Shown: positions 8,301 through 54,088, counted from the first letter of the stretch. The stretch: DNA of 64,000 bases from Amoebophrya sp. A120 (GCA_905178155.1 CAJINV010000004.1:5930828-5994827); one strand, 5' to 3'. Translations and numbers: made by a program. The notes: a model not told the origin generated them from the sequence alone.

Positions 8301-11300
8301 GATGTTTCACCTTAGGAAGAAGATTTGTCATGCATGTTTGCAATTAGTTTTAGTACGAGTACGATGCTTTTGCAGTTCATAGCACGTAGCGCAACACGAG
8401 CTGGAGTGCCTCGTGGCGAATTGAGAGCGACGTGAAGGCGTGGTTGAAGCAAAGGCGGTGCATATTACAATGAAAAATGCCCCCACCCCCGAACGTGGGA
8501 GCATTTGTATTGCAAACCTTTCCAAATGAAACATTCGCCCTCTTGCATCTATCAGCGTCACAGAGTTCCGATCGTGAAAGAATAGCAAAAATTTGTATTG
8601 CAAAAGATCCCAGCAAGAGCGGCCCTTGTCATGCAAGCGACGCGATATACACCTATACCCTGCATCAGAAAGATTCATACTCCTTTCATGCATGACAAAA
8701 AGTTTTCATATTGGAGACTTTGCATCACAAAAAATTTTTGCAACTTTGGGAGTGGGGGCATTTTTCACTGTAATAGTGCAACATCCGGAAAATCACGCAG
8801 GAAAGGTGCGGCTGCGTACCGGCGTCCGACTGCTGGCTGAGGTCTCCTGTCGTGGTGGGAGATGAACTTAGTTTCGTAGCTGCTGCTGCACTTGTTCCAC
8901 TTGTTGTGACCGCAGCAGGAGGAGGACCTCCCGCTCCGGGACTTTTTTTCTCTTCTCTATTCTTGTCGCCCTGTTTTAGTCCATCGTGAAGACTCACCTC
9001 GACGACCTCCCCGTCCTCTGACGCGACTGTCGGCGCGTTCGGTTGAAAGTTGTTTTCGTAGTAGACCTGCTCGAGCAGGTAGGGTAAGTGCTTGACCAGA
9101 AAGGAGTCCGTTTGTTGGAGGGCTTCGTCCAAGACCTCCTGGTATATGTTGGCACGGAAATCCAGCAAGAGGATGCAACAGCCGACAGCTTCCGGCAGCC
9201 GGTGTTGCATGTGTTGTAACAACGGCGTTACAATGTGTTCCGACTGTCGCGTTTTTTTTCTCGAGTTCTGGCCACTACTTCTCGTTGAAGTTGTACTACT
9301 GTCCATGTCTGTATAACACGTTGCGATGTTTGGGTCCGCCTTCAAGCCAAGCAGCACAGCCACCGCGGTCTCCCGGCCCTCTTGGATCGCGACGAGCAGC
9401 GGGGTTTCGTTCTCGGCGTTCTTCGCATTCAGCATACTGAAAAGGTCTGGCGCGGCAACTGCAGGAGTTGTCCTACTTGAAGATGCTGCGTCGTTTTTTA
9501 TCTTCAGTGCACGGGGCCCAGCCTCTTCTGGTACTGCCACTGTCTCGTCCTTTTCAACATGACCGGCCGTGGTGGAGTGGTCTATTGCTGTTTTGCCATC
9601 TTCCTCCACGTTCTTCTTGTTCGCTGCTCGCGCAGCCGCCTCTGCGATCTCTGTGTCGGTCCAGGGCAGGGTGTCGTCAGGGCCCTGGCTCCGCGCGTAC
9701 AAGTGAAACACATTGTCTTTCCGGAACGTTTCAGCCCCGAAGCGTGCACCAAACTCCAGGAGCAGACGAGCCTGATATAATAACGCGAAGAACTCTGACA
9801 GATACTACACTCAGACAGAGACAAGGTTGTTCTTGTAACGGGTTAATATGCAGGTACAAGAGAATCAGAATTATATGAATGTACTGAAGAAGAGTACGAT
9901 GTCATAGTTCCCTTCATTGACGGCAGCGAGGTAGGGCGGCATGTACAGTGGGCCGGAAAACTCGTCGTCATCTTCGGATAGCAGCGAGGAAGAGACTACT
10001 GTGATCACGTCCTCTTCTTCGACGTCTTGGTTTTCACCCTCGTGGTCCCGCCTGTCGGGAACATCCGCTTGGTCATCTTCTGGATTGCTATCTTTGTCCT
10101 CTCGACTACTCCGAGCTGCTTTTGACGTGCTCGTGGTCTGCTCCTTCACCGGAACCCACTTGAAATTCGAATCGTTATGATCGTTTTTTTTTTCCTCATC
10201 ATCCTCCGGCTCCTCGTCCGGAATGGCCGCGCCTTTGCTACCTCCACCTCGAGAGCGTCGCTTGTTTCGAGAGCGTCTATTTGATGTTTTTCGGCCCCCG
10301 GTCGAGTTTCCTCCGCCGTCTGACGAGTTGTGTTCATCACTGGAGCCCCCGCTGCTGTTCAAATCTGCTTCGAGAAGTTCCAGTTCCTTCGCCAACTCGC
10401 TGGGGATGCTGGAGACGACGTCATGGAAGGAGCCCAGTTCCTCCTCGTCCTCCTCTAAATCCTCGATGTTTGTTGACCCGTCATCGATTTCTGTGCTGTC
10501 GTAGACGGCGTCATGCCACTTCTTCCGCATCCGTTTCTCTTCCTCTACATCGTAGTTCACTTCCGCCTTTGCCTCCAGCAACAATCTCACACACGTTAAC
10601 GTCGCGTCCTGACTGCCGCCGGTGGTGACGGTGACCGCGACAGAGAGGTTGCGGTGCAAATCCGGATTCGCGTTGTTCTGCAGCAGCAGCTCCACCAACT
10701 TAACCCGCCGCTGCGCCGACTCAGTCATGTCTTTGTGTGCCACGTACGCGCGAAACGCACACTATCCTCAGGAAATTTTCCGTACGCGACAACGTAAGTA
10801 CATCTGACTACAAATGCTATTCTTGCTGCATGAGACAGGTTTTCTTCAACAATCACATTTACTAGCATGACAAGTCAAGTGCCATGATGCTTCAGGTTGT
10901 TGGAAAAATTTGTGATGCATTTTGTACGTACAAGTACTTGTGCGGTCAACGTGAATTTCAATTTGTATTTGATACGCACATCAGGGGCGTTTGCAGCTCG
11001 TCATCGACGGCGTTCGGGTTCGCGTTGTGGTCGAGCAGACACTGCGCAATTGTGTCCAGGCCCCGGCGGCACGCGACGAAAAGTGGGGTTTCGCCGTTAG
11101 AATTCAGCGGGTCGACGACAAAGCGGTTGCGGAGGTGCGCAATGTGTTCGCTATTCTGAATGACTGAGAGGGGCGGGATGGTGCGGGAAAATTCTTCCCT
11201 GATGTCCTCGCGGTTGGTGAGAAGGGGAACTGCAAACGATGATGTGCCTGCTTGTTTCGCAGCTGCAGTAGCAGTAGCTCCTTCATGTGCACTACTAGTA

Positions 11301-14300
11301 GCCGTGGCAGCTGCTCCGGCATTGCTGCATCCCGCGATGTCTTCGATTCCCGAGTGGCTGAAGCGCTTGCTGAGCCGCTTGCTCAGCTTCCGTACCGTTT
11401 CGACCTCGGATTGGGCCTGTTGGTCCTCGTCCGTTTCGGAGGTACTGGATTCGCTGGACGAAGACGAAGCTGAGGACCCCTGTTTTGATGATTTCGCGTC
11501 TTCGTACGGGTCATTTTCATCGTCTTTGAGCGCAGTAGGCTCTTCTCCGTCTCGTCCACCACCAGATTCTTCATTGTCTCCGGTTCTATTTTTACATGTG
11601 TCACCATTTACTTCCGACGTGCTGGACAGTCCGATGCCAGCGCCTGCTGTGCCCGGATCATCACTATCATCTTCTTTTCCCTCCTCCTCTTCCCCCTCGC
11701 CCTCCGTACCCCCGTCCGCGGAGCTGGCTGCCATCTCCATTACGCGATACACAATCCGCAAATTGTCCTCCCGGTTTTGCACGCAGAGCTGGAGTGCGGC
11801 CAAAATTTTGTTGCAGTAATTGATGAGGGAATTTTCCCACTCCTGCACCCGGTTCGCCGACACGGTTTCTTCCTCGTAGTACTCGAATACGGAATCCACA
11901 ATGGAGAACAGCGGGTGCTCCGGCGACCGGATCTGCGGGAACTCGTCGAAAAACGTCTCCAAGGTTTTTCGGGTCTCGTCCTTACTGGATGAAGTGTCGG
12001 CAGGAGCGTTGCCGTCGGAAGATGTTCTTCTTCTTGGGGCGTTCTTGTTTGCCGAGGCCAAAGATGATGATGACCCGGGAATCACGGCAAGGACCAGTCG
12101 GCAAATGGCGTCGAGCCGGTCCCTGTCGCTGTAGTCATCTACTTCGGGATGAAGTGGAGGTTGCTCAGGCTCTACTTCTGTTGCCGCAGCCGCATCCTTA
12201 TCATAAACACGCAGAGTCTGTTGACTACTTGTTCCTATCCGGCGGTGGAAAACCTTCGACAGAAGGTCTTCCTGCGAGGCGAAGGTTCGGACTTTGAAAA
12301 TTTTTGGACTATTAGCGGTCTTTATGTCGTGGAGGTTTTGGTTTTCAACTGCACGACCAGGAGCACTCTTCAGGAATCTTTCGAACACGGATTCGCAAAT
12401 CTCGCGCACTAGCGCGCCGCTTCCATACAGCTCCCGCATGTGGTCGAGGATGGTCAGAATTAGCGGTCTATGAAATGCAAAAGCATCGTACTAGTAGAAA
12501 TCGCATTACAGATTTTCTCAGCATGAGAAATTACTTAATAAAATTTGCAATGCTGATTTGCCTGCTTGATAAAGAAATTTGTAATGCAAGACCTGCATTT
12601 ATACGAGTACGATACTTTTGCACAGCATACGGTCGCTGGGGCTGGCCTCCTGAAGAATGATCGTAGCCCACTACTTGGAGTTCTTGTGAAGGGACTGGTT
12701 GTCGTGTCACCGCAACAACCTCTGCGGAAGAACCTCCTACGGCTGCCGGTGCAAAATTTTCGTCGCCGCGAGCAACATCTACATCGGCGATAAATGCACC
12801 GCCGCCGGCAATATTTTCGTACTTCCCACCGTAGATTTCTGCGTACATTTGCGCGCAGTGCCAGTGCGCGAGGTCCTTCTCCGCCCAACTCTCGACCGCG
12901 GCTCCCGTGTACTTTTTCAGGTTGGTGTGCTGCAGGAGTAAATCCACGACCTCTTCGCCCACGATGTTGTGGGCCAAGCACAGCGTCAGCGCGGTCTGCG
13001 GCGCTACGTCCTCTGTCGTTTCGAGATTGCAGTCCGCCTTCTGGATCAGCAAATATTTCACCACCTCGGCGTTGTCCTCCAGACTGGCGTCCTTGAGCGC
13101 GCCAAACCGCGTCGCCTTTTCTACAACCGCGGCCTGCAGCGCGGTCAGCCCGTCGGACACAAGGTTGACGTCCTCGTTGGCCTCCAGTAACAGCTGCACG
13201 CATTCCTTCGAACCGGCAAGCGCAGCGACGTGAAGGGCTCGGTAGCGGACCTCGTCCTCATCGAACTCTTCGTCGTCATCGTCGTCGAATATATCGTCGT
13301 CCTCCTCCTCCTCATCCGTGTTATTACTGGAGGTAGAAGGATCCTCCTCGCGTCCTCGCCCTCGGTCCGAGGGAAGGTGATTCCCTTTGTCATGATTTTC
13401 GTCTTGCGAGGACTCAGAACTCATCGGAGACGAAGGGTTTGAGTTCGAAGAACCTGCTTGTTCCCCGTTAGAATTTGTGCCACCGTGGTGGTTGCGCGCA
13501 CCCCGAGCCGCCTCGATGGTAGAGGCGATGTTTGAAGGCGGTGGTTCTACTTTGATCCTCAAAGGCGCCCAGATGGAACTAGCGTCGCCGCTTCGATGTT
13601 CCTGTAGTTCCTTTTCTGCACCTGCTGGTGTCCTCTTTTCATCTATTCTTGAAGTAGCCCCTGCGTCCTTACTTGCCATTGTTCCGATTCTCCCGTCCTC
13701 CGCCACCTCGACTACCGAGGACAAACCCCCCGCTACCGCTATGAATTGCAAAAGTATCGCATTGCAAATTTCTTCAGCATGAGAAATAAAATTTGTAGTG
13801 CGATTTTACCTGTAATGCATGATTGCAATACGAGTACGATACTTTTGCACAGGATAACCGCCGCGACGGAGTGGTCTTGGGGAAGGCGAAACCACAGCTC
13901 TACGGAAGACTCGGCCGACAAACGTTTCAAGTCTTCCATATGAGAGCGCACAACTCCCCGTCCCCCTCCTTTGTGTTGCATGAACAGCAACACAAACACC
14001 AGCACACGTGGAGCCTGTGCATGGCAAATTCATGCAGTTCTAGTGTAGTACTGTTTGGGCTTCCGGAATCTGTCATGCAAACAGTGCAACAGGAAAGCAC
14101 TTGGGTTTGGGGTTTTGCATGACAAATGAGGGGGAGGGGGAGTTGTGCACTGTCATATTCCACCTGCCTTAGCGGGAAGCCGACGCGCTTAAAGTGCGTT
14201 TTCCGCGTTCTTTTGGGAAGAGACGGTAGTTGAGAATTATCTGCATTTCCATATCCATTTTCATTTTCCTCCTCCTCGTCCAAACGAAACACGCGCATCA

Positions 14301-17300
14301 GCTCGGTTCTTGGCGGGAGCACCGCTTTCGTGTAGATTTTCAGATCGTGGTGGTCGCTGTTGGTGGAATGTGTGTTCTTATTTCGATTTGATCCAGCACG
14401 ACTTTGGTCTGCTCGTGCTACATCAACCCGGAAACCGGGGCGAAGTCTGTTGTCTTCAGCGGTGTTTCCGGAGCCCATTGCGGCCGCAGCGTCATAATTC
14501 TCGGTCTCTTTCACGAAGGGACAAAGCGTTCCGTCCAGCGACAGCAGGGGGTCTAGTGCTTCTTGTTGCGCGGCGCCAGTATCATCTGATGAAAGGTTGT
14601 TATTACCTGCAACTGCTGCATTTTCGTCCCGGTTTGAAGTTCCTAGTGTAGTTCCTGCAGGAGCTGTCACATCGTCGAGCACTGCGGCTCCTGCTAAGCC
14701 AGGAATCTGCAGATGCGGATGCCTTCCTGGCTCTGCCTCTGCATTAATATTTGCATCGGAAGATAAAGATGTTGAAACTGCACCAGCACCACCACCACCA
14801 GAAAGGCCTCCCCCACCGTCCAGCAGGTTTCCCGCCGTGTACACAAAAACCCCCGCATCTTCATCCGTCTCCACCTCGCAATCGGACTGGCGGATTCGAA
14901 AAGTCGCACTGGAGAGACAGGACTTCACCAACCGCGAAATTAACGCGTTTTTCCGCTTTCTTTTCCGCTCCCTCTTCGACAGAAGGTTCAGGTCCTGCTC
15001 CAACTGCAGAAACGAATCGGTCTCGGTGGAAGAGAAGAGGATTGTGACTTTGAGAATTTTTGTCTCGTGCGAGTATTCCGACGCTAGTAATTCCTTCAAG
15101 CGGTCGGGCATGGCGTGGATGCAGGTGTACAGCAAGCTACTGGTCATCCACTCCCAGCTCGTGCCGCATATGGCGTTCTCAAACGTTACATTCTCAACTG
15201 TCATGCAAAACCAACATCAACATCCACACGGCGCAGCGACTTCGCATGACAAATTCCCGAAGGGCTATCGAAACAGCATTGAAATCTGTGCGGAATTTGT
15301 AGTGCTAGAAGTTCAATCCCCCCTTTTGCCTTTTGCTATGCTTGCATTGCAAATTCATGTAACAGTTGAGAATGTAACAACTGAGAGTCCCATACCGCAG
15401 ACACAGATGATGTGGTTGCACCCCTCGGACTTGACGGTCGGCACCCCGCACTTGGGGCACCACTGCACGCCGCCGCGCTTCGTGATGCCCAGCCCGTCGC
15501 GCATGCGCTGCTCGCAGGTCTGCCCGGGGTGCCACTCCGCGGTCTTGCACTTGAAACACATAGCGGCGTTGCAGCAGGGCGTTCGGAAGTAGGGGTACCT
15601 TCGGAAAAACGCGAGCAGCAGGGTGCACTTGCGCTCCACGTCCGCGATCTCCTGGCACTTTTCGTACTATCCTTCGTAAAAACGTCCCCACACCATAGAT
15701 AGTCAAGATGGCAAGTCTGCAACACAAATCCCCCAGCTTTGGGAGTTCTGCATGACAAGTTTCGATCTGCAGTGTAGTGCTGGCTGGCAAGGAAAGCGGC
15801 ATGAAAAAGCCTTTTCTCATCCTGTTCACAGCATTACAAATGCCAAAACATGACTGGAAATGCGTCTCATGGAGATGCGCATTCCAAGTGTTCCTGTCAT
15901 TGCACATTTGTATGACAACTCTGGGGCGGGGACGTTTTTACACAGGATACGTACACGCGTTTGGCTAGGGGAGCTGCAGCCTGCAGCAGTTTCGAAGCGC
16001 CAGGACCTGGCGGGGTGGATTTTTTTCAGTAAGTACAAAAACATCAACGCAGACTGGATTTCTTTACGTACAATTTACAACTAGCGACCACACGAACAAA
16101 GAATAAAGCGCACCACACGGCAGCTGCCTCTGAAATTGAAAATGCCGACGATACATCTTTACGGCAGCTTACATACGTGCACGTGGTGCATCTTATCTTC
16201 TTGTTCAGCTTTAGTTTATACGCAAATCAACGCTTGACGGCGAGTCTTGTCCCTTCGGCGAAGTAGATCCACCGCCACCTCTCCCTCCTGCTTCCTCCTC
16301 ACTGCCCGCATCTACTTTACGTTCGCCGAAAAGCGCGTAGTTGAGATGCTGGTCGAGGTCCACGATCTGGTTTATTTCTCCAGCGAGGTCCTCCCGCTCC
16401 GTGGCGCTGTGGTCGTTGGAGGAGAAACCGCTGACCTGAGTGAACTGCGTTACGGTCCTATGGAAGAGAGGAAAAGGCTCGGTACAGTCACAAACACTAA
16501 GACTAACTTGCAGGAGGCTTTGCATGAGAATTTTTTTCGGCGTCACGACAGGAAGTTTTTCTTGTATTGCAGAAAAACATCAAGGGAAATACCGGCTTGG
16601 TCGTATCAGATTTGACTGTGTTGCATTTTCGCCGCTGACTGAACTGATGTTTGTGCTTTGCAGGGTTATTACCGATTCCACCGATGAGTGATCGTGACCA
16701 ACATTTTCTTTTTGATAGGTTCGCACCGCCACCACGCCGTCCGGCCCAGATGCGATGATCCGTGTGGTTGTCTTCTTGTTCTGCTGCAGTTCTCCTGATA
16801 GCAGGGAACTGCTGCTCGGCGGTACATCCTTACAAACCAGTTCCAGCTCGTCTGCAAGTTGCTGCAACACCTCCTCCGCTTCGCACCGCCCCTTCAGCCA
16901 CCGCTTCCAGAGCACCGAGGCGGAGTGTAGTTGAGCGCCGTTCTCTTTGGTGGGTTCCTCTTCCGCCGATGTCGTGGCAGCAATACCACCGCCGATTCCT
17001 CCCGCAGCTGCGGACGAGGCCGTGGTAGAGACACTCGCGGTGTCAGAACCGCCCCCGCATCGTCGCCAGTGTTGGTCGCGCAACTTCTCTTCGAGGTCGT
17101 GTATGGGGCTCTCAAGCGCTATATTCTCAACTGTTACATATACATAAATATACATGATTTGTCATGCAGAACTACCAGCAGAATCGAAACGATCAAGCTG
17201 CTTCGCATGACAAATTCTCGAAGTCCTAAAGAGGCTTAGAACCTGTGCCAAATCTGTCATGCAAGACGCAGAACGTCACCCCTTTCACTTTTGCCATTCT

Positions 17301-20300
17301 TGCATGACAAGTCCATGTAGCAAGTGAGAATGTAACATTTGAAAACACCATATCGTGGCGCTGTTTGTTCTTTTTCACGTGGTCGACGCCATGGTAGGGA
17401 GAGGAAAGCGAGTTCCGGAGCCAGGTATGCTGTACAAAACAAGTATCGACGTACTCGTAGTAATCCTAATCGCAGTCATGCATTACAAATCTCCATCCCA
17501 AGGTAAAACAGCATGAGAAAAAAATTTTTCCATGTGTCATGCTGAGCTAATTTTATACATCTACCGCGGGGAGATCATCCTATGGGATGATCAATGACTC
17601 GCCTGGAGTCGTCGTCGCCCCGTAGAGCGGGCGCCCACGAGATGAGCACCTGCCCGGGATGATCAATGACTCGCATGGAGTCGTCGTCGCCCCGTAGAGC
17701 GGGCGCCCACGAGATGAGCACCTGCCCCATACAGGACGAAGACATATTCAGAGTCTCTGTCACGCTACCTACGATAGCGGCGCGAGACCTCATGATCGCC
17801 CCGTGGTAAGAGAAAGAGCACGAAACCAAAAACCCACCAAAAGAGGGCGGGTGGGCGGGAAAAACTTCAAGCCCGGAGGCCTGGCCCCTGTCACTGTCAT
17901 ATCTAGGATCTGGCTACCGAGTAAGATATCGGGTCGAGGCTGGGGCCGTATAAAATATCGACCGACCAACCTCAGCCCCGACTCACAGGCTCGCGCGACT
18001 GCTGTTGCCCGGTCATAAATTTTATACATCTACCGCGGGGAGATCATCCTATGGGATGATCAATGACTCGCATGGAGTCGTCGTCGCCCCGTAGAGCGGG
18101 CGCCCACGAGATGAGCACCTGCCCCACCGACGGAGACGCAACGCGACGAAGCAACCCAAAGAACCCGCAAGTGCACACGCGTAGATGAATTTGGGTAACA
18201 ACAAGTGCCCCATCGAAGAGGAGGCGGAAGTGACGACAGCACCACGAGAGACCGATACGCCAGCAGATGCTGATCATATCAAAACGCAGACGGCAAGAAG
18301 GGCGTGACCGAGCGCAAACACAGACGGGGTCTGGCACAGACGCAAGAACAGCATGTACGGAGTCCCAGCGTGATCTCGTCGACACACATGTCGAACGAGC
18401 AGAAAAAAAAGAAATAATCGTGTACCGAGCAGGCCTACATCAACATTAAATGTTGTAAAAGAAGTAATGTGCGCCACAGCGCGAGCCATGGGAAACCCAC
18501 CCGAAAAATCTACACAGAACACAGACCCGGAACGGAGAGCGGCGCCCTTACTTCTTATCGACTCCCGCGCCGGCGCTGCTGCTGCTGCTGCCGGTCTTCC
18601 CCTGATGAACATCCCACGCCCGGGCAGGATCGAAACGCCACCCAAAGCGCTGCACAACCTCCCGAAGCTGCTCCAAGGACTCCGGGGCGGCATGGGAGTA
18701 GGAACACCCACGACGCGAGCAATTTCCATGCTGCAAGAAGATCGCGCAGGGGCCGGCCGGAGCGGAATCCGCTCCCGCCCGCTGGCGTTTCGAACGGCCG
18801 CCGTCCTCTTGTTCGGTGGTTACGGAATCCATGCGGGAAAAGCAAACACCCTGAAACCACTCCCAAACCTTTAACGCGTAGGCCTTGGGGCCCTCGTTCG
18901 GGTTGCCGCTCCCTTCATAGTCGCCCGCGGCGCTCAAAGTCTTGGCGTCCCGCGCCCAAACCTTGGCAAAGATCTCGAAGGCCTGCGCGCTCAGTCCAAA
19001 ACGGAAAACCCAGGACAGGCCGAAGGAATTGACAGCCCGCACGTCGCGCTCCGCAACAAAAAGGACAACGGTGAGCATCTGGAAAACACAGCGAACGGTC
19101 TTCAGCGGCAAGCCCGCAAGGTCCATGTCGAGAACGGCCTTGTGCAGCTTGGAGAACAAAGAAGCGGAGCAGATGATGTCAGGAGACACCCCCATCTGTG
19201 CCGCCACGGCACTAACTTTCTTCTCTTCCTTCGCCATCGTTTCGAAGCCCTTCGCGAAAAGCTTCCCCATCATCTCTAACTGCTCCGCATTCTGCAGCTG
19301 CTGCTGGGGCTGCTGCTGCTGGCCCCCATGGTTTTGCCCTTCAATATCAGACATTTTAGCGAAAAGGATGGCACCCAAAGAAGATGCGCTTTGCTCGAAG
19401 TACACGAAAATACTCACCCAAAGGTGTCAAGGTCCCTGTGACGGATGGATGGGAGGAGGAAACAGTGAGGACAAGGGCAAGAGCCGCTCCTCAACTCCCC
19501 AGGCGAAACTACTAACAGATCTGGAAGACACACCAGGACATTTCTTCCCGTGGGAGTGTCGATTTAAGAGCGAGCAACATATGATCAGAACCACAGAAGA
19601 CCCAGAGCACCCATTTTCGATTTCGACCACGGAGAAATAGAGAGGAACCCGCCCAGATGGCGCCACATTTGCAGAACATGAGTGCGGTCATATTTCGACC
19701 CAGAGATGAACGGGACACACATACACCACCGCGCTGACCCTAGTCCGCGACTCGCGTGACACAGCTCCACAGCGTAGACATATACCAACCACAAACCCCG
19801 GGGCCTACCGCCTCACGTTTCTCCTCTCTTAGGTTTAACGGATTCAAACCGCCAGTGCCACAGAGCCGAAGTCACGCCAGTCAGTCGGACCAGGATCAGC
19901 GCCAGATGGACAGACGCGCATCAAAGCGCCGTCATCACGACAGCAGACCAAACAACTCGCAGTGCGGGCAAAAGGCCTCACACACCGCGCCAGGACGTAA
20001 AGTAGACGCAGAAGGCAGCCTACTTCACAGAGAGAGAAACAACTGTAGATCGAGGGCGGAAAGGCTCCTCTCCCTACCCAAACGGCCGTCAACATCGGCC
20101 AGAAAACAACTGACTACCATCGGCAGGGGCGTTACTCCCTGGATCCCAGAATGACAAAAACGAGGGGAAAAACTTCAAGCCCGGAGGCCTGGCCCCTGTC
20201 ACTGTCATATCTAGGATCTGGCTACCGAGTAAGATATCGGGTCGAGGCTGGGGCCGTATAAAATATCGACCGACCAACCTCAGCCCCGACTCACAGGCTC

Positions 20301-23300
20301 GCGCGACTGCTGTTGCCCGGTCATACATTTATTGTAATGCAAGTACTACTAGTGCGATAGTCATGCTTTTGCAGTTCATACCAGGGGTGATCCAGCAACA
20401 AAAAGCCCGGCTGCTCGTTCAGCAGACTGCCGGTACCGTCGCAGTCCGGGCAGCGGTAGGTGAGCAACGCCTCGGCGCTCTGGTAGTACTTTTGGAACAC
20501 GGACACATCCACCAGGGGCGTCCAGACGTCCGCGGGCACGCGGGAGCGGCAGTCCGGGCACTTCAGATAGGGACACGAGTACAGCGCCGCTGACACCATG
20601 GTCTCCGCGTGCTGCGAGAAACACTCGCGGCAAAAGCAACCCTGGCACACTGGCGGCGAGGTGGAAGAGGACGACTTGCTGGTAGATCCAGTGAGCAAAC
20701 GAGCCCGCGTGTTAGACGCAGCAGCCCCAGCGCCGGATGGTTCGGTGGATAATGAAGTGCGAGGGAGGTTCAAGCAGGGCCGCAACAGCAGCCTGACGTC
20801 CACATGGCCGGGGGAGTGGCGTAACCGGCTTCATATGGATTGGAAAGAACACGTAGCGCACTCGTAGCGGTTGCATTTATTGCTGCAATAGAATTAGAAA
20901 TACGGTCAGCGTCGTGTGCGTGAGAAATACAATTAGCCAGCTGATTCAGCTTGGAAAGAAAATTTTCTTTCGCATGATTCTGATTAAGTGCTTTGTTCGA
21001 GTACGGTACTTTCGCACGGGATACTTCGTGGCGACCAGCAAATGGAGGTCTCTTCGTCGAAATCATCTAGGCAGATCTGACACCGGAAGTTGTTTAGTGT
21101 GAAAGCTTTGTCGAGGGCATCAACATCACGCCTGAGAGGGAGCAACGCCGAGGAGGGGTCGGCCAGAGCAGCCTCAGGATCGATGGGCAACAAACAGCTC
21201 TCCTGCTGCTGTTGCTGCCGGCTGAGTGCAGCATTCGCAGCTGCTCCCGCCGCAGCTTTCTTTGAGGAAGCTGCTGTTCCACCACCGGTGCCCGCCAGTC
21301 CTAAAGCTGCCGGTGTTGAACAGGCGGTCACCGAGCTTCTGGATTTTGACCCCGGTTTGCTCGCAGGGGAAACGGTGGGAAGCGATGCGCCATCATGATC
21401 CGTGGTCGTACCGCTAGCTCCGCGCTGCGCCGCGTCTAGGCGGGGGAGATGCTTGCTCGCGCTCCGGCTGATCGACGTTGCGTTTTGTGCATTGCAAAAG
21501 CATCATATTTAGTGGAAATCGCAATACAGACTTTTCCACAAGAAAATAGAATGGAAATTGTGAAGCTGCTTTTGCTTGATAGCGTTGGCGTTTCCATTTG
21601 TCGTGCACTCGTCCTGCAATACAAGTAAGCGATGCTTTTTCACACGGGATACGTCCTCGCGACCCGCGATGAGTCGCTGCAGTGCCGCATCGGTCAAGGG
21701 TTGACTGCCCTGCGCCAGCCGGGTCTGCAGGTCAGAAATCGGCGTCGCGTTGCTGGCGTAGGGGGTGGAGGAGCCTGTTGTGCCTGCTCCCGCAGAGAGT
21801 TTATTGCCCGCCGCTCCTGTAGTTGTCGTCTGCTCCCCCGCCGCGAGTTGTTGGAGATTCACCAGAGGACCTCGATTTCCCGCTCCCGGTGCGGACGAGA
21901 ACTGAGAGGTTGGCCCAGCTGTGTTTTGATGACGTTGGTCGGCCGCACGACTCCCTGTGCCGGTAGTCGCTGCCAGCTGCCCTGGAATTTGTTGACCACT
22001 TCCGCTACTGGTTCCTTGCGCCCCCACAGAAGAAGCACTTCCACCGCCTCCACCAATGCGGGGGAGGTGGTGCGCACCACCACCTCCAGCATGGTGCGGC
22101 GGCTGGTTCAGGTTTCGCTTGTTGATTTGGTTTTGCGCAGTGGCACTCCTCCGCTGTGGCTGTTGTACCAGCTGGTGGCCACCTGTTGAAGTAGGTGATG
22201 CCCCACTTGTGGTCGCATGTTGCTGGTGGTGGTGCCCAAGCGCGCCTCCCCTGCTTGCGGGTGACGAGGGTGCCGTCGTTGCAGTCCCCCTACCTCCACC
22301 AGTGGCTGTGGTCGCTGGACCTGTTCCTGTAGCATGATGATGCTGCCCTCCTGTTGCAGCGCCTCCTGTAGTGGTGTTCGCACTGGCCGCGGTTGTTTTT
22401 CGGCCGCTCAGCTCCCGGAGCTCTTTCAGACGGCTGCGTGAGCTCGGGGTCACGTATGGGTTGGTGGCGTTGTTTGTTCCGACAGCGCCTGGAACTCCTC
22501 GTGCAGTCGTGCCGACTGCGCCGCCGATAGCGGGGGTGAGCAGTTGATGTGCCCCCGCCTGCCGCGACTGTAGGTGTTGTACTAGAAATGCGGCCTCATT
22601 TGTTTTCGTCACAAGCGGTTTTGTCGTGTCGTGTTGCGTATGCTGTGAAAAAGTATCGAACTCGTACTAAAACTAATTGCAAATATGCATGACAAATCTT
22701 CCTTCTGTAGGTAAAACAGCATTAGTACAAATTTTACTTTTATTCTTGCCGAAATTTGTAATGCGATTTCTACTAGTATGGTACTTTTGCAATGCATATT
22801 GTGCACTACTGGGCTTGCTCGGCGACGACGTCGAGGCGTCGGACAAATGCTTCGCCTATCAAAATGAAAAATCTCCCCTCCCCATACCAAATTGAAAATC
22901 TGTGATGCAACAAGGCTTGTGGACATAAATCAGCTTTGTCTTGCAGTAGAGGACTGCACGCAGATACAAAGCCTGAGCTGGGCCTTTTTGGTGTTGCCAC
23001 CTAGCAAGGAAGACTGATCCTCTGCACACCATACAGCATTACAAATTGCGCGCAAAACCCGCCGGAGTCTCTGGCTTTGCCATTTTGCAAGACGATTTGT
23101 GTCCGCAAATCAGCATCACAAATTTTCAGAAGTGATGTGTCTTTTGAGTATGGGGTGAGAGGATTTTTCCTCACAATATCGCCAGGCCCGTGTTCGGAGA
23201 CTCCGCTCGGTCTTCCAGCAGGGGGCCTCCCGTGATTTGGTTGGATGTTATTTGAGACGAGGGGAAATTAATATGTTGACCTCCTGCTGTTCCACTTGTT

Positions 23301-23506
23301 GCACTAGCGGCGCCACGAAGGCCCCCGCGCGATGAAGTAGCGCCGCTCGCTGCACCACCTGCGTGCGGAAAGCGCGTTCGCTCGGCGGCATTGCGGTAGT
23401 TGCCGCCCCAGGGACCACCTGCTCGGACGGGCGTTCCGGTACGAGCGGCCGTCGTGTGGTTATCTCCTCCACCGGGCGTACGCCGCTGTTGGGGGGCAGT
23501 GGACAT
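2332..23506 (-). CDS. Giant multi-exon RBR (RING1-IBR-RING2) E3 ubiquitin ligase with C-terminal ankyrin repeats, roughly 4500 aa (estimate)
   Basis: Exons join in frame after removing 18 introners (+1 TSD each) and ~5 canonical introns (e.g. 6108-6272, 9772-9897). RING1-like CQICLDDF...CFCRECF...KCPDC; IBR-like CCNAAMCFKCKTAEWHPGQTC; RING2 CPKCGVPTVKSEGCNHIICVCG|TSWEW. Ankyrin motifs ALHVAALAGSKECVQLLL, ETPLFVACRRG, ETPLLVAIQEG. The last two junctions (near 5.2 kb and 3.0 kb) are less certain. Confidence 0.8.
5895..6050. mobile_element. Introner, family A
   Basis: tatgaaatgcaaaagc...cttttgcacaggata; TSD tttcg/tttcg; removal gives WTLHFQPK|NPNVF. Confidence 0.9.
7844..8157. mobile_element. 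Introner, family B
   Basis: Perfect 15-bp TIR tatggaagcgtcagg/cctgacgcttccata; TSD cccgt; frame restored (FLDG|KYVET). Confidence 0.92.
8222..8381. mobile_element. Introner, family A
   Basis: tatgaactgcaaaag/cttttgcagttcata; TSD gcacg; frame restored. Confidence 0.92.
8463..8775. mobile_element. Introner, family C
   Basis: 24-bp TIR tattacaatgaaaaatgcccccac (1 mismatch); TSD gtgca; frame restored (MLH|RLCF). Confidence 0.92.
10763..10974. mobile_element. Introner, family H (degenerate)
   Basis: tat...ata ends; TSD cacac/cgcac; frame restored (TPLMC|AFRAYVAH); resembles 35935-36103. Confidence 0.8.
12469..12629. mobile_element. Introner, family A
   Basis: TSD cggtc; removal gives QRP|LILTILDHMRELY. 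Confidence 0.92.
13740..13856. mobile_element. Introner, family A (internally deleted, 117 bp)
   Basis: tatgaattgcaaaagtatcg/cgatacttttgcacaggata; TSD accgc; frame restored. Confidence 0.9.
13939..14157. mobile_element. Introner, family D
   Basis: tatgagagcgcacaactcccc/ggggagttgtgcactgtcata; TSD ttcca; frame restored (QVE|DLKR). Confidence 0.92.
15169..15394. mobile_element. Introner, family E, inside RING2
   Basis: TIR containing gttacattctcaactgt/acagttgagaatgtaac; TSD ccgca; removal rebuilds CVCG|TSWEW. Confidence 0.92.
15668..15949. mobile_element. Introner, family F
   Basis: tatccttcgtaaaaacgtcccc/ggggacgtttttacacaggata; TSD cgtac. Confidence 0.9.
16459..16717. mobile_element. Degenerate introner, unassigned family
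   Basis: tat...ata ends; TSD ggtcc/ggttc; frame restored (VAVRT|VTQF). Confidence 0.75.
17102..17352. mobile_element. Introner, family E
   Basis: TSD tcgtg; frame restored (QRHD|LEEK). Confidence 0.9.
17549..17729. repeat. Direct repeat B, terminal copy, with a 72-bp tandem duplication
   Basis: Matches 18018-18126; unit gggatgatc...cacctgccc at 17584 and 17656. Confidence 0.95.
17857..18017. repeat. 161-bp direct repeat A, internal copy
   Basis: Appears identical to 20165-20325. Confidence 0.95.
18018..18126. repeat. Direct repeat B, internal copy
   Basis: aattttatacatctaccgcgggg...cacctgcccca, same as from 17549. Confidence 0.95.
18548..19417 (-). CDS. Gag-like protein with a CCCH zinc finger (the element's ORF)
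   Basis: Intronless 289-aa ORF (start may be MSDIEGQ); C-terminal CAIFLQHGNCSRRGCSYSH = C-x8-C-x4-C-x3-H; the only convincing ORF between the repeats. Confidence 0.65.
   Translation of the reverse strand: MSIFVYFEQSASSLGAILFAKMSDIEGQNHGGQQQQPQQQLQNAEQLEMMGKLFAKGFETMAKEEKKVSAVAAQMGVSPDIICSASLFSKLHKAVLDMDLAGLPLKTVRCVFQMLTVVLFVAERDVRAVNSFGLSWVFRFGLSAQAFEIFAKVWARDAKTLSAAGDYEGSGNPNEGPKAYALKVWEWFQGVCFSRMDSVTTEQEDGGRSKRQRAGADSAPAGPCAIFLQHGNCSRRGCSYSHAAPESLEQLREVVQRFGWRFDPARAWDVHQGKTGSSSSSAGAGVDKK
20165..20325. repeat. 161-bp direct repeat A, terminal copy
   Basis: Appears identical to 17857-18017. Confidence 0.95.
20834..21023. mobile_element. Degenerate family A-like introner inside RING1
   Basis: TSD cttca/cttcg; frame restored (WSPR|SRLRHSPGHVDV). 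Confidence 0.8.
21485..21581. mobile_element. Degenerate, shortened family A introner
   Basis: TSD gcgtt; left TAT lost; frame restored (NANA|TSISR). Confidence 0.75.
21615..21651. mobile_element. 37-bp introner remnant, probable GT-AG mini-intron
   Basis: One family A arm only, flanked by cgtcc/cgtcc; - strand reads gtatcc...ttgcag (21652-21614, 39 nt). Confidence 0.65.
22639..22798. mobile_element. Introner, family A (reverse orientation)
   Basis: TSD ttgcg/ttgtg; tat...ata ends. Confidence 0.88.
22857..23178. mobile_element. Introner, family C-like
   Basis: tatcaaaatgaaaaatctcccctccccata/tatggggtgagaggatttttcctcacaata; TSD tcgcc. Confidence 0.85.
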
Positions 23507-24029
23507 TCCCCCTTAAAATTGGTTTTGTGTATCTTAAAATCGTAGTAGCAGAGACAGAAGAACATGAAGAGACAACGCAACATGGGTGGAGAGAAGGACA
23601 ACACTTCAGCCCGTAACGTCCACATGAGACAGACCACGCTAACGTCTACATGAGACAGACCCCTTAAAAAGCAACAAAATGAAAGGTGTTTCTCATCACG
23701 GGCGGACGGCAAAGTCAAGAAGCTCTTGGTTTTGCAATATGTCATCCCCACCAGGAAGAAGAGGAAGAACGCCTTGGGAATTCGTAAAGTTTAGACATGC
23801 TTACCAAGTTTAACGGGTCGTGGAGATACGACGACATCAAATAAGAAAGACAATAAAGATGTGACAGACAACACAGGTGCATTTGTGAAGAAAAAATCGC
23901 AAGAAAGTGCATCCAAGGTCATACCTACAAGAAGCAAATAGACCAAAAGGTGACTGTCGTGTGCCCGGCGGTAGCAGCGAGTCGCGACGACTAAAGGACA
24001 GCAGCGCGAAAGTGGAAAAAAAATGGCAG

Positions 24030-44400: not shown

Positions 44401-47400
44401 CGCGGTCCTCAAATCTCGGGAGAAGATATTATCAGGACTGCTCCAGTTCAACTTCGGGACGCCAGGGTGGAGAAACGTGTTCTTCTTGTTGTTCTGCGGT
44501 ATGATTTCTACTGCCGCGGCTTCTCGATTTGTTGTAGTTCCCCGACTCGCGCGGTTGGCGACCTTCATCCAGCGGAAGATCGACCAAGTGTCCCGGTCGG
44601 CTTTGGTCTTCGGCGCAGAAGATGCCTTAGAATTTCCTCCACTGGTAGTTCCTCCGATTATCTCCTCATCGATCATGTCCAACCTTATCGGCTCCGCGAA
44701 CATGGCATAAGGATCACTAATATGCTGTGCAAAAGTATCGTCCTCGTACTAATGGCATTTATGCATTACAAATCTTCTTGTTAAGGCAAATCCGCATTAC
44801 ACATTTCATTTGTTGTAATGCTAAGCCAATTTGTAATGCCATTTATACTAGTTGTACGATGCTTTTGCATTACATAACTAATCGACTCCATCAAACTTGT
44901 CGTCCCGATCGCGGCGTCAAAATTCTCCTGCAAGTACTGCCCGGGGTTCGGGTGGTTTTGTGCGTTGGTAGTCAAGTGCTCCAACACCGTTTCAAACGGC
45001 ATCACGTGCTTCACCTCCTGCGGACGATCTAAGAAGTGCAACGTCGCGAGGTCCCGCCCCTGCTCGATCACCGTGCCGTGAATCCCGCGATTCCGTTCGG
45101 ACAGTGTCCGGAAAAACAGTAACCCCGCGAGATCGGCGTCGGAGACCAACCCGAGCTTCATGGTCGCTTTGTCACCCCGGTCCAAATACCGCTCTCGCGC
45201 TTCCTGCCAGATGTTCTGTACCAAATCCGGAAAGAACAGGTTGTGTACCGAGGGTAACGCGTTGCGGAACGCGGAACTGGGGATCACGGAATCGGGCGAG
45301 AAGCTGCCAATCACGCTGTTTGGTACGGTTTGTTCAATCCCCGCCGGCTTCCGGGCGCGGAAGGGCAGGTAAAATTGGACAAATAAGTCGCGGAACCGGA
45401 ACACCGCCTGCACCATGCCACTGTCTGTTAAACTTTGGCGGACCAGGAATTTCGGTAGCTCGTCCTCGACCAGTTGCTGCAGCGTCTCTTCGTTTTCCTC
45501 CTCTTCTTGTTTCTTCCTTTCGTCGAAATCACGCATGGCGTCCGCGAGGTTGCGCATCTCGTCTGCCATCTGGTTTCCGAAGGAGTTGTGCCTTGTTGGG
45601 TTGAATTTGTGCCCCATCGGGTTCACTAAGGAGAGGCTGGTGCTGGCGCCGAACGAGAGCGTTAACGTTCCCTCTAGCGCGGACTCCGTGGTGCCGCCAA
45701 ACGGACTGGTCGCGGAGGTTGCTGCGCCGCCGGGGGAAGAGGCCGCGCTGTGGTCACCCAACTGGACAATATTGTTCTTCCCTGTCGAAGGCGCGCTGGA
45801 CGTCGCGCCCCCGGGACTGCCGACGACCAGGGTGGTCTTCTTCATATTAGAACCGGGTCCAGCTTTCGGCACTGCAGATGATCCAGGAGCTGCAGCTGCT
45901 CCAGCGCTCGCTGATTTCGGCGTCTGCGCCTGGCCCAATCTCTTCCCCAGCTGCTTGAACCCGCCCGTTTTCTTCATCCGAGTCGCCATCTGGGACTCGA
46001 TCTTCCACTCCAACGTGGACGGGTCGGAATACCCGAGAAGAATTTGCAAATCGATGACGCCTCTCCCCTCCCGGTCAAGAGAATCGAAAAACATGTCGAA
46101 CGGGAGACCAAAGGACTGGAAGGTATCGATGTGCTCGTCGTTGAAGAAGCGTTTCAGATTTAACCTGTTGATCTGCGGCGACTTGGTCTCCACGACCGTC
46201 GTGACCCCCGCCACCATCGCCCTTTTTTCGATCAACAGGTCTTGGTACCGCAGAATTTCGTCCTTTTTCGCCCCCCAGGCGGCCGCGGCGCTGGGCGGGT
46301 TTAAAACGCGGCCAAGCGGGTAGCTGGACTCGCGCTTCGCAGATTTGAATTCCTGCTTCCACCCGTACAAGGGGAGCTCCCCGCACTCATTGTACAGCGG
46401 CCGGGCGAAATGCCCGAGACCACACCACTTGCTCTTACTCCGCAACCGCGCGCGCTGCCCGCCCAGTTCGCCGTGCTCGTCGCCAATGTGGAGATTAATC
46501 GGGTTGTTGAACTTGAAGCAGGGCTCGAACCGCTTCAACTTCCGCTTCCCCAGCGCCGGCCCGTGCTTCGCCAAATACTGTTTCGCGCGCTTCCGGGTGA
46601 GTTTGTGCTGCTGCATGGTCCGTTCCGTGATCCCCGGCTGCGGGTTGCGCAGTTTTAACCTCCCTCCCACGAAGTTGTACCCCCAGTTCCGGCCGTGGCG
46701 GGCGGTCACCACGTCCCGCTTAGTGTCTCGCCGCAGCTCGGCGTGCTTCTTCGGGTACCACGCGGCCAACTTCCAACTCGCTTCGTTCGGCCGGGAAAAG
46801 GGCCCCTGGAGCAGCTTCTTCGAGTGCATCTCGCCGTCCAGCGTGATCTATCAAATGCAAAAATGTCTGGGTCTGGAAGAATGCAGATTTTTGTCATGCT
46901 GCTTTTGCATGATGACACAAAATGTCTGTCATGTAAGCCCTAGCGTCACAGATTTCGAGAAGCTTCAGTATTGCTTAATCTGCATGGCGAATCCCTCATT
47001 TTGGTAACAGGAAATGGGCACTTTTTGCCTCCTATGCTTGAGAGATTTGTCTGTGTTGGGAAATGCGCATCAAAAGTACGCATCCTTCCAGACCCAGACA
47101 TATTTGCAATGCATATGATGGGAATGGTCCGGATGTTCGTGCCGTGCAGCAAATCCTTCCGCGGCACAATCCGCTGCATCGTGCCCCCGCCGGTGTAGCG
47201 GCACAACCGCGTGTAGACATGTTGTAATGTCCCGTAGCGGCTAGAAAAAGCGATTCTCACGGCTTCCTCCAACGTGATGCGGCAGAACTCCTCGGCTCCG
47301 TAGGGGGTTTTGGACTGTTCCACCACCTGTTTGAAGTACGCTTTCACCTCCTTCGCGACCGAGGAGCGGGAATTGACCATTTGAGAATTCCCCAAATCTA

Positions 47401-50400
47401 AACCAACAATCCGTTTCCGCACACTCGCTATGTACTGGGACGCCGATTTCTTCCCGCCTGCCTTCCGTTTCGCCGCGACAATCGCCAGCTCGGCCTTGCG
47501 GTCCTTCAGCTTCACGATCTTCATCCGGCCCTCTGCGCGCTGCCGCACGCTCATCGCGTTCGAGTCGCTCGTGAACCGCCACCTCGCGGCGGTGTCCGTG
47601 TAACCGGTTAACCGCGCAGAACGCAGCTTTCCTGACTTGTCACGGATCTTCTTCGGCTTCTTCGGCTTGTATTCCGGAGTTGTAGCTTGCTGGTGTTCCT
47701 CCAGCTCTTGAACCGAAACTCCCTTATTCCGCGTCTCAGCGTCGCCGTCAAGGTCCTGCTCCACCGCAGCTTCAGCCAGTCCCTCCGTCGTGTCCTCTAA
47801 AACGACGTACTCGTCTTCTAAGATCGTTTCCAGCTCCAGCGCCTCCTCATCTACATCGTCGGTGAATTCGGCCATAGAGGACGATAAAACCTCCTGCTCC
47901 GCGAGCTTTTTGATAAACTCGGCTTCCTCCGTCGCCTCGGGGAAGAGCTGCTTCTTCAAGTAGAATTTCGCCACCTCGCTGCACACCTGCACTTCTGCTA
48001 CTGATTCGACGTAGAGGTAGTTCCGCAGGTAGTCACAAGCCACGTTCAGGGCCTTCCACTGTTTCACATTATTTTTTCCACCAGTTGTGCTCACGACCAC
48101 ATTAGTCGTCGTTGTGTTCTTCGACGCAGCAGCAGGGGCAGCAGAATCAGAATCTCCAGCTGCGCGAGGGCTGACTGCACTCTTGTTCGGGCCTCCTGCT
48201 GTGCCGGAAAAATTTTTATCCTTGTTGTTGTTCCCCTTCGGCGTCCGCGGCTCGCTAGCGGTCGTAGTTCCCTCTTCTTCCTCGTCCTCTTGATCCTCTA
48301 ATTTGTTTTTTAATAGTTGAATGAAGAACGCGTCCGCCGCTTTCCACCTTTCCACGGTTGGAGGCCGGTCGTAGAAGAAGTTGGTCTGACCCTGCGCGGT
48401 CAGTTCCGCTACCTCGGGATAGGGGTGCGTCATGTCGTACTGCGTCCCGTCGATGGTCCCGCGCCCGATCTTCCCGATGAAGTGCTTGGCCTCCGCGTTT
48501 TTCAGTGTCAGTTGCGCCCCCTCGGTGGACAGATCCACTTTGTCCGCACCCATTTCCAACTCCGACCTCGGGGCGTTGATCCCGCCGGATTTCCGTACGT
48601 TCACGCCGGAAGACCGCGCGTCGTGCATGAGTCGCTCCTTTTGGACGACCACTTTATTGCTGTACCGCCAGGGGTCGTTCCGCACCCCGGTGTCGATGTC
48701 GAAGGTTTCGCGGGGGATTTTGATCTTGGCCACGTCCCCATCGGGCGTCCAATACATTCCCAACCGATTCATCTCCCACTCGCCACGCTTCTGGTGCGCG
48801 ATTCTTCTCTTTGCGTTTTCCACCGCCGCTAACCGCGCGCCCTGCGGGCCGGAACCCGGGTACTGAAGTTTGAGATATCCAGTAAAGTCCGCCATGACCG
48901 GTGCGGCCAGGTCCGCCTCCATCATGGCTTTTTCCAGTTGGGAATACAAAGTCTGCCCCTGCATCCGAACTCCGACGGGGGCGGGTTCGCGGTCGGAGTG
49001 ATGTTCGAGGTGTTTTTTCTTCTTGCTGGTCATCTTGGTAGAAGACGGATTGCCATGATTCCGAGTAGACGTAGACACGGCTCCTGCAGCAGCTCCAACT
49101 GGTGGAGAAGTTTTGATACTTCCGTCTTCGACAACTCGAACATGGCGTGTTGTACCTCCGGATGGACTACCAGCAAGAACCGGCGACACCGCCGTTGGCA
49201 GTGCATTCAAGTTGCGTTTCGTCAGTGGCGTGTGCACAATTTCCTGCCGGGACGAACCGAGATCTTCATTGTCGTGGCCCTGCTGCTCGTGGTTCTTAAA
49301 ACTTCTATCGACTTTGATTTCCGTCAAAGTTTCCTCCGGAGTGTGGTAAATCTCCTGCTGGTGCATCAACTGCGGACTGTTTTCAACTATTTTCCCTTTC
49401 GGCATCAACACTTCCAACGACGGATCTGGCCCGACCTCCGTCACATACGCTCCGTTCGGCTGCAACACTGGGACGCGGCGCAGCGTGGCGAAGGAGGGAA
49501 GTTCAGACGCGGAGTGGTCGCGCCGCTCCAGAGTTGGGAACAATTCCTTCCTCGGTGTCGTGGACAAAATTTCGCTTGCCAGGCTGTCGATCTTCCGGTG
49601 GATTTTTTCCTCCTCCGTCGCGTCCCGATCCAAACTGTCCACGAAGTGCACATTCGCGTTTTTGTCATTCGGCGATGGTTTGTTGTACAATCGTTTGTAA
49701 GGCGGCATAGAAATGTGGTGGTGTACGTGGATGATTTTTTCCCCGTGTGCGCCGACGTCGTTCGTGATTTTGTAACTCCCTGGCGGTTTTTTCTTCTCGT
49801 TGTTCAGCAAATCGGTTCTCAAATGCTCGCTCATGCGCTTATCATCCTTCGTCAACCCGCTGTGACCCTTTTCCTTCTGGTTTCTCTCCCTTTCCATCAC
49901 CGCTTTGTCTCCCATGCTGGTTCCGCCTCTCTGAAACGCCAAAAACCCGCCGACATCCTCTTCCTCGAGTTTCTGCCTGGAAATCTTCTGTCTTTCCCGG
50001 AGTTCATCCAGCTCTTTCTGCTGCTGTTGGAGGCGTTTTTGTTCCTGCTCCTCTTCATCGAGTTCCGTTTTCTGCAGAAACAGATCCACTTCCTCCAAGT
50101 CGTACGTGATCGCGTGGGGGCTCAAAGGGACTTGCCGTCCGAGGAGGTTCCACCGATGGTGAATGTTCGTTTCGTCAGCATCATCGCCAGCATTTTCGTT
50201 TAGTACCTCTGCCTGTCCCCACTGCCGCCCCAACCGCTCGCGCCTAAGCAGCTGTGAGAAAGGGGACGCGATGGGTTCCAGCTCGGTGATGCGGTTGAGC
50301 AGATGGTTAAAGGCTGGCTTGGCAAGCTGGTCAGCGTTATCATGCTCGGGAGCGGCGATTTCGGCGTCTGCGTCAGCACGACCAGCTTGTTGCTGATTCT

Positions 50401-53604: not shown

Positions 53605-54060
53605 ACAATAAAGTGTCCCCGGTTCTCTTCAGGTCACGAACTGTACACGCCGTTGCTGCGGCTCGAAAGAAGCCACGGGCGCGTGGCCCCGAGCGCGGCC
53701 AAAAAGTGCCCCAATCTCTCTTCAAATCACGACCCGTAGACACCGTTTTTGCAGCTCGAAAAAAGCCCCGGACACGTCCGTGGCCCAGAGGGCGGCCAAA
53801 AAGTGCGCCAATCTCTCTTCAAATCACGACCCATAGACACCGGTTTTGCAGCTCGAAAAAAGCCACGGGCACGTCCGTGGCCCAGAGAGCGGTCAAAAAG
53901 TGCCCCGACCTGTCTTCAGATCAGGATATGTCGTCACCGTTTTTGCCGCTCGAAAAAAGCCACGGGCGCTTGGCCCGGAGTAGAGCGGCCAAAAAGTGCC
54001 CCAAGCTCTCTTCAGATCACAGCCCTTAGCAGCCGTTTTTGCGGCTCGGGCTCGAAAGAA
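53605..54060. repeat. Diverged tandem repeat, ~97-bp unit, ~4.5 copies
   Basis: aaaaagtgc... recurs at ~53701, 53798, 53895, 53991. Confidence 0.85.
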
Positions 54061-54088
54061 GCCGGTGCCCCGGGGGGGCGCTTTTTTC

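Follow-up and report, generated by a model that had tools for sequence, protein, structure and literature searches.

The split-repeat layout A1-[ORFs]-B1A2B2 (ORF, open reading frame) is known from the tyrosine recombinase (YR) retrotransposons Ngaro (PMC8547959), PAT (PMC4157794) and VIPER (PMC6681497), and non-autonomous YR elements are represented by TOC1 (PMC9940879) and SIRE (PMC6681497). A split-repeat element nested in another mobile element of a protist has already been published (PMC8547959). In the dinoflagellate parasite Amoebophrya, introners form repeated families with terminal inverted repeats and direct repeats of 3-5 nt at the exon border (PMC7789003), and introners derived from long terminal repeat (LTR), non-LTR and terminal inverted repeat (TIR) elements have been given for the genus (PMC12130899). 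Here and below, statements on published systems refer to the consulted parts of the cited papers. We analysed a stretch of 64,000 nt from Amoebophrya sp. A120 (GCA_905178155.1, CAJINV010000004.1:5930828-5994827; hereafter, the window), in which a 2,777-bp element with split direct repeats lies within an introner that itself lies within a predicted RBR ubiquitin-ligase gene.

This three-level nesting was confirmed, and its parts are as follows, in window positions. X numbers denote sequencing runs whose contigs were compared with the window.

17421-17425, no strand: left copy of the introner target-site duplication CCAGG, from the sequence
17426-17548, no strand: left part of the introner, starting TATG, and 3' portion of the host intron; aligns collinearly with 10 members of the family
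17549-17655, minus: repeat B2, 107 nt, 3' end of the element in the sense of its ORF; 106/107 to B1
17550-17553, plus: ATTT core of the left outer junction, agreeing with the introner family's own sequence there (junction comparison)
17656-17729, minus: the inner 72-74 nt of B, present once more in tandem (window self-comparison; bridged by an X7 contig)
17730-17856, minus: spacer of 127 nt between A2 and the B2 block, from the sequence
17857-18017, minus: repeat A2, 161 nt; 161/161 to A1, and an X8 contig equals exactly 17857-18017
18018-18124, minus: repeat B1, abutting A2; the A2/B1 border is bridged by an X3 contig
18019-18022: ATTT of the inner B1A2 junction; B1A2 is the likely template of a circle junction, by comparison with PMC7192593 and PMC8547959
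18548-19354, minus: ORF of 268 aa from the first Met, helical with one C-x8-C-x4-C-x3-H finger, in the sense of the host gene; likely Gag-like or nucleic-acid-binding by analogy
19355-20164, minus: 5' region of 810 nt, with no YR remnant detected; in relatives, a YR occupies this position relative to the ORF
20165-20325, minus: repeat A1, 161 nt, 5' end of the element in the sense of its ORF; 161/161 to A2
20326-20380, no strand: right part of the introner, ending CATA, with an ATTT core at 20327-20330, and 5' part of the host intron
20381-20385, no strand: right copy of the target-site duplication CCAGG, at the end of the upstream exon (...HPW)

On the minus strand, the element has the order A1-ORF-B1A2-spacer-B2. 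According to blastn within the window, A1 and A2 were identical (161/161, E 2.6e-81) and B1 and B2 matched at 106/107 positions (E 2.7e-49). A2 and B1 abut at 18017/18018, and a 3' region of 423 nt lies between the ORF and B1. Neither A nor B had a further copy in the 64-kb window, and the spacer was unique, with no copy of it there. A previous reading of the DNA from sequence alone (the sequence-only reading) had described this order and the identity of the A copies, both of which held, but had overlooked that, next to B2, 72 nt from the inner part of B are repeated in tandem (17656-17727). Its description of an introner with an intact CCAGG duplication split by a 2.78-kb insert was borne out: CCAGG stands on both sides, the ends are TATG...CATA, and the element spans 17549-20325 (2,777 bp) of an introner at 17426-20380. 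The element has no target-site duplication of its own. Since the A copies are identical, the element appears to be young.

The window holds 26 strict introner matches, which are short inverted-repeat introns with 5-nt direct repeats. Both halves of the split introner aligned end to end with 10 other members of its family in the window at 70-86% identity, and this collinearity indicates that the insert entered a pre-existing introner. Emptied of the insert, the introner is 178 nt long, as compared to 150-164 nt in family members, and its ends are degraded, with 13 of 25 positions complementary. The window's introners resemble the published ones (PMC7789003; PMC12130899) in having inverted repeats at their ends, 5-nt direct repeats that overlap the exon border, ends other than GT-AG, lengths of 150-320 nt and many families within one window. 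The nested introner differs from those published in its 2.8-kb insert and degraded ends. Candidate empty-site joints (17492, 17520 or 17551 to 20332-20363; sides of 20-25 nt) were set aside, as they are most simply explained by other members of a very high-copy introner family.

The junctions provide a further link to YR elements. ATTT is present at all three, left outer, inner B1A2 and right outer, and the introner family carries AATTT or AT-TT at the insertion position, according to the family alignment. In DIRS elements, a short motif is common to the circle junction and both flanks (PMC7192593). A shared ATTT without target duplication is as expected for YR integration; this is supporting rather than decisive evidence, involving 4 nt at one locus.

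We then characterized the ORF, the only Met-initiated one of note in the element. Its product is predicted to be helical with one C-x8-C-x4-C-x3-H (CCCH) finger. A search of 1.84 billion representatives yielded 10 matches at E<=0.001, four of which covered most of the ORF at 24-28% identity and kept the finger. The remaining six were set aside as short stretches in very long repetitive proteins, P0002 being the one examined. The finger was kept in all five aligned sequences, and PF00642 was matched in P0001 with an E of 8e-07. The best match, with an E of 1e-11, was the Amoebophrya gene model P0001; over its N-terminal 232 aa, it resembles tyrosine recombinases (ESM Atlas 0.96; all 10 of the best family-bearing matches in the integrase family or clan). 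The Atlas matches of this YR include DUF3504 clusters. A complete relative, P0013, carries GLRK205, HSFR290, HLRW313 and LYY323, the order of which we take to be that of the YR catalytic motifs, together with weak matches to Pfam PF00589 (E 0.2 and 0.027).

At a second locus, a YR (g7586, 90% identical to the first) and a CCCH ORF (g7585) are consecutively numbered gene models. The transcript-derived P0016 holds both, YR first, with ~380 nt from the HLRW motif to the start of the CCCH ORF; the ORF of the element aligned with P0016 at 25% identity over 219 aa (E 2e-20). Overall, two loci in Amoebophrya AT5.2/Ameob2 models and transcripts (P0001, P0013-P0016) have the ORF family immediately 3' of a predicted YR, which is divergent; these loci are annotated as unnamed genes only. 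Because homologues of its ORF adjoin a predicted YR, the element is tied to YR transposons independently of its repeats. Judged from sequence similarity, the ORF family is wider than the Amoebophrya sample. Homologues of 242-292 aa were also seen on environmental contigs of 1.3-3.2 kb (P0005, P0007, P0009, P0011 and P0012), all sharing a YA-x-R/K-V/I motif and the CCCH finger.

The product of the ORF is likely Gag-like or nucleic-acid-binding. No capsid fold was matched, so the label Gag-like is used by analogy. A single-sequence fold model had a predicted local distance difference test (pLDDT) score of 43 and was not used; the alignment-based model reached a pLDDT of 70 and had no structural match. 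No matches were returned by a word-index protein search with the ORF, a search of metagenome contigs with the ORF, or searches of PHROGs, NCBIfam and PDB sequences. A protein search with the ORF alignment returned an input sequence only, and no match was found in viral contigs with the YR alignment or in prokaryote genomes with P0015. In the ESM Atlas, the ORF grouped at 0.92 with unnamed clusters from eukaryotes, and recognition did not reach the tool's threshold; we treat this as a lead only.

Taken together, the element is probably a young, non-autonomous YR retrotransposon that works like PAT and Ngaro elements and would be mobilised by a helper. According to this model, RNA running from within A1 to within B2 would be reverse-transcribed in trans by a helper reverse transcriptase (RT). 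The inner B1A2 junction would then template the ends into a circle, and a helper YR would recombine the circle junction with an ATTT site, here in the introner family's own AT-rich sequence. In the published DIRS model, the internal junction region is needed and isolated cDNA is mostly linear (PMC7192593). The sequence-only reading had likewise proposed a recent non-autonomous YR element, in agreement with the split repeats without target duplication, the identical A copies, the absence of RT and YR, and the ORF homologues adjoining a predicted YR. Its assignment to Ngaro or PAT was not sustained. These families are told apart by their content of RT, methyltransferase and YR and by phylogeny, methyltransferase being absent from Ngaro and present in PAT, and RT and YR serving for phylogeny (PMC4157794, PMC9210276). 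As RT and YR are absent from this copy, it cannot be placed in either family.

Each of the described systems matches the element in part. Ngaro of Cafeteria burkhardae shares the A1-[ORF]-B1A2B2 layout, a putative Gag-like first ORF and nesting in a mobile element of a protist (PMC8547959). By contrast, it is ~6 kb long, encodes RT/RNase H and YR, and is nested in an endogenous virophage, whereas the element described here is 2.8 kb, is devoid of these genes and lies in an introner. The gene order in Ngaro is Gag, RT/RNase H, YR, with YR the last ORF, whereas the relatives of this ORF have the YR upstream (PMC8547959). PAT/Pat1-like and Toc elements share the split direct repeats, a zinc finger in the Pat1 Gag-like protein and, in TOC1 of Chlamydomonas, a non-autonomous member (PMC4157794, PMC9940879). 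As compared to PAT, the element has no methyltransferase, RT or YR, no named PAT Gag was among the ORF matches, and its finger is C-x8-C-x4-C-x3-H. VIPER/TATE and SIRE offer an A1...B1-A2-B2 arrangement of similar size (173/219 bp in T. cruzi), a parasitic protist host and non-autonomous derivatives (PMC6681497). They differ in that VIPER has the order Gag, YR, RT/RNase H and a CX2CX4HX4C box, SIRE corresponds to the A2-B2 part only, and both are described from kinetoplastids only (PMC6681497). Going by the gene models, a YR before the CCCH ORF would be an order unlike that of Ngaro or VIPER; a tandem or permuted copy could also place a YR before the next Gag.

Several observations weigh against the helper-mobilised retrotransposon. 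According to Pfam searches of its three ORFs of at least 200 aa, the element contains no RT, RNase H or YR, and none of the three was found in the 26 of 43 window ORFs of at least 200 aa that were scanned. The two relative loci are perhaps from one species and would then not be independent lineages. The YR call on these relatives rests on Atlas features and motifs, Pfam scores being below cut-off, and searches of PDB sequences and NCBIfam with the relatives' YR returned no match. For the ORF itself, no fold was matched (Foldseek none at E<=0.001; best VIA Z 5.3). All three ORF variants change an amino acid and give no sign of selection, although they are too few to weigh. At the right junction, the base before ATTT is C, not A, and three extra bases follow. 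The shared core is 4 nt only, and short AT-rich matches arise by chance. A tblastn search of the insert with related YRs found no YR remnant (best E 0.022, on the opposite strand). On sequence grounds, the element is likely non-autonomous.

These same relatives bear on whether the element ever passed through RNA. It could derive from a YR DNA transposon of the Crypton type that moved as DNA, in the form of an excised circle and with no reverse-transcription step, its relatives carrying the YR and the CCCH ORF only. The YR is upstream of the CCCH ORF at both relative loci, no RT was seen with them at the level of gene models and a transcript, and the Atlas matches include DUF3504 clusters, a domain tied to CryptonA by the title of PMC13465315. 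Nevertheless, we regard this origin as unlikely: in the papers cited above, it is retroelements that have split direct repeats and an inner B1A2 junction, which make sense as a means of repairing the ends of an RNA intermediate, and the identity of A1 and A2 over a distance of 2.3 kb is consistent with templated copying. Alternatively, the repeats could stem from a simpler one-gene cassette (B-ORF-A) that was duplicated locally or mis-assembled, such as a collapsed tandem pair.

We compared the window with contigs from X1, X3, X4, X7 and X8 and with three raw RNA runs; X2, X5, X6 and X9 of the 12 runs were left out. X1 may be the window's own assembly sample, and X8 is an estuary metagenome from another study. 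Contigs from X1 crossed the left (17491-17578) and right (20296-21500) junctions without differences, reaching 30 letters into the element, one fewer than we required of a bridging contig. An X3 contig bridged A2|B1 and an X7 contig bridged the tandem junction. In X8, one contig, with a depth of 2.1, coincided exactly with repeat A (17857-18017, 161 nt, 0 differences), and a second matched a piece of host exon (21131-21400, 0 differences). The former gives weak but independent support for A as a real repeat unit with these boundaries. The spacer (17730-17856) was not covered by the listed contig pieces of the five runs, a gap that proves nothing, and is the only part without a second data set; X1 contigs continue past its expected branch points at 18126 and 20165. 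Assemblers can drop short single-copy links between high-depth repeats, which would explain this gap.

Depth in X1 was 23-32 in the flanks, 47.5-53 in the interior, 84 in the B core and 115 in the 72-nt unit (~2, 3 and 4 times the flank), contig depth being rough and not equal to copy number. The X1 interior contig differed from the window at 6 letters and by a 4-nt insertion, and X3 and X4 shared a further variant at 19207. The B-core contig of X1 begins with ATTT, one base in from the edge of B; given the 31-letter words of the graph, this start would mark a third context with another flank. An X4 contig covers 17550-17672 and continues for 20 further letters, which may be a second flank or a poly(A) tail. 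The depths, the variants and the start of the B-core contig suggest about two near-identical copies, the second being >99% identical and possibly a partial copy elsewhere. The depth and the variants together point to a young, very low-copy family.

The depths also fit a mis-assembled cassette: they correspond to ~2 interiors, ~2 copies of A (3 at the most) and 3 B cores, a smaller number than expected from two complete elements. In one X3 contig, the 5' region continues through A and on into B (20159 to 17861), and B2 contains a further tandem duplication. However, the depth and the X3 joint are accounted for equally well by one complete and one partial copy and by a graph path that runs through a repeat exceeding the word size. 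The spacer is unique, an independent metagenome contig equals A exactly, known elements have the same repeat order, and the homologues of the ORF are linked to a YR. Duplication or mis-assembly is therefore very unlikely in our estimation. The X3 joint was also considered as a circle junction and rejected, since a graph path through the 161-nt repeat gives the same joint. A 20-nt pattern from the end of A had one match (L001, 23 nt), with nothing else alike, and was attributed to chance.

A 40-nt stretch in the 5' region of the element (19829-19869) was common to other, higher-depth sequence in X1, X3, X4 and X7, where it was seen at contig breaks and loose ends; it had no other copy in the window. 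Its minus strand carries a GGTTTGAATCC motif that we take to resemble a tRNA T-loop or B-box. ARAGORN and Rfam gave no match, including for the GGTTTGAATCC stretch. The 40-nt stretch may mark a related element family.

The nature of the host gene was predicted from its exons, including the two that flank the nested intron:

20381-20828, minus: exon upstream of the nested intron, with a Cys-rich RING1 and the next zinc-binding part; Pfam weak, domain names inferred from the Cys pattern
17353-17420, minus: exon downstream of the nested intron (LRNS...)
15397-15666, minus: exon with IBR/RING2-type domains; Pfam IBR PF01485, E 2.2e-05, 24.9 bits against a cut-off of 24.3

A second IBR-type stretch accompanies the Pfam IBR above cut-off. 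RING1 reached an E of only 0.13 in Pfam, below cut-off, and fits the RBR Cys pattern by eye; its weak score is explained by an intron that splits it. Based on the IBR domain and the Cys pattern, the gene is predicted to encode an RBR E3 ligase. About nine introner-like introns of several families occur across the gene (14000-23700). Exact 5-nt duplications flank those at 15169, 15668, 17102 and 22857, and degraded ones those at ~16460-16590, 20834-21023, 21485-21643 and 22639-22797. This mixture suggests gains of different ages.

Removal of 17421-20380 and of two neighbouring introners left an open frame (HPW|LRNS) with 0 stops over four exons, as compared to 13 and 9 stops in the other two frames over the same exons. 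The sequence-only reading had noted this open frame, correctly; its figures of 2955 bp and ~17-fold become 2,960 nt to be removed, including one CCAGG, and 16.2-fold relative to the emptied 183 nt. Its further step, from an open frame to a spliced intron, does not follow. The frame results from the introner's CCAGG duplication, which is older than the insert; having been set when the introner arrived, it stays open whatever lands inside later and is no proof of splicing. Moreover, a young insertion would leave no time yet for the gene to decay.

We also weighed whether the element seeks introners as a safe harbour, with the enlarged intron spliced via its ends. The flanking exons keep a stop-free host frame, ATTT occupies a fixed position in the introner family, and introns of tens of kb are present among published gene models of Amoebophrya (PMC7789003). 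On the other hand, this is one insertion, and introner-like DNA accounts for 9,173 (~15%) of the 61,223 bases left when the element is excluded, and for 256 (32%) of the 813 ATTT sites, before selection removes exonic insertions; the introner share is approximate, as it was obtained from 26 seed introners with nearby matches merged. The safe-harbour proposal of the sequence-only reading is thus not upheld, and landing in an introner is most likely due to chance plus survival rather than targeting. In a folding model, the predicted end-to-end pairs of this intron fell from 12.5 when emptied to 0.4 in the full 2.96-kb form. Other introners had 18-26 (11 introners, minus strand) or 11.6-25.4 (plus strand), this one being the weakest on the minus strand. 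Folding 3 kb at equilibrium carries little weight as evidence, but the result leans against a passive end hairpin. As the element lies in the host sense, host transcripts would run through all of it, and its own 3' end could cut them short. For the combined proposal of targeting and end-dependent splicing, the probability seems to us low.

For Amoebophrya non-canonical introns, U1 small nuclear RNA was not detected and a terminal hairpin has been proposed in the consulted parts of PMC7789003, where the intron analysis kept introns of 40-1000 bp only. Three raw RNA runs with the same species label had 0, 2 and 2 reads on the window, indicating that these runs do not hold this organism. Contigs of X1, X3, X4, X7 and X8 contained no joint at any introner's ends, and those of X1, X3 and X7 run into or through neighbouring introners as DNA does; this is evidence neither for nor against splicing. 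With the folding model taken into account, we give about even chances that the host still splices the 2,960-nt intron.

Elsewhere in the window, a tandem array of 15.3 copies of an 88-nt unit (98% matches) lies at 54081-55419, adjacent to an array of 4.4 copies of a 97-nt unit at 53624-54048. Three minus-strand frames are open across much of this region (53624-55419), with a weak DUF7054 match only. A stop-free frame of 1,899 aa (46949-52645, minus) had no Pfam match at E<=0.001 and is unusual in an introner-dense window. An ankyrin-repeat gene of several exons (8728-13805, minus) and an alpha/beta hydrolase gene (56311-57942, minus) were also present.

Nested transposons in transposons and introns are common, so nesting alone is ordinary. 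A literature search on nested insertions in introners gave nothing relevant. In the literature on tyrosine recombinases and DIRS elements in Amoebophrya, no split-repeat element is described in the consulted parts of PMC12130899; the datasets of that paper, Repbase and subscription papers may hold one. A more far-reaching scenario, which we judge distinctly unlikely, is that an undescribed YR lineage of parasitic dinoflagellates, in which the YR precedes the CCCH gene and an RT may be lacking, integrates at the ATTT contained in an abundant introner family. The host would transcribe the element in sense and splice it as a 2.96-kb non-canonical intron, and splicing would both hide the element and release its full-length RNA.

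The locus points to YR elements in the Amoebophrya lineage in which the YR precedes a CCCH ORF. It is also a natural test of introner removal, in that 2.96 kb rather than 183 nt separate the same ends, which exceeds the 40-1000 bp range of the published intron analysis (PMC7789003). If the 2.96-kb intron is spliced, introner removal would be independent of length and would not rely on a passive end hairpin.

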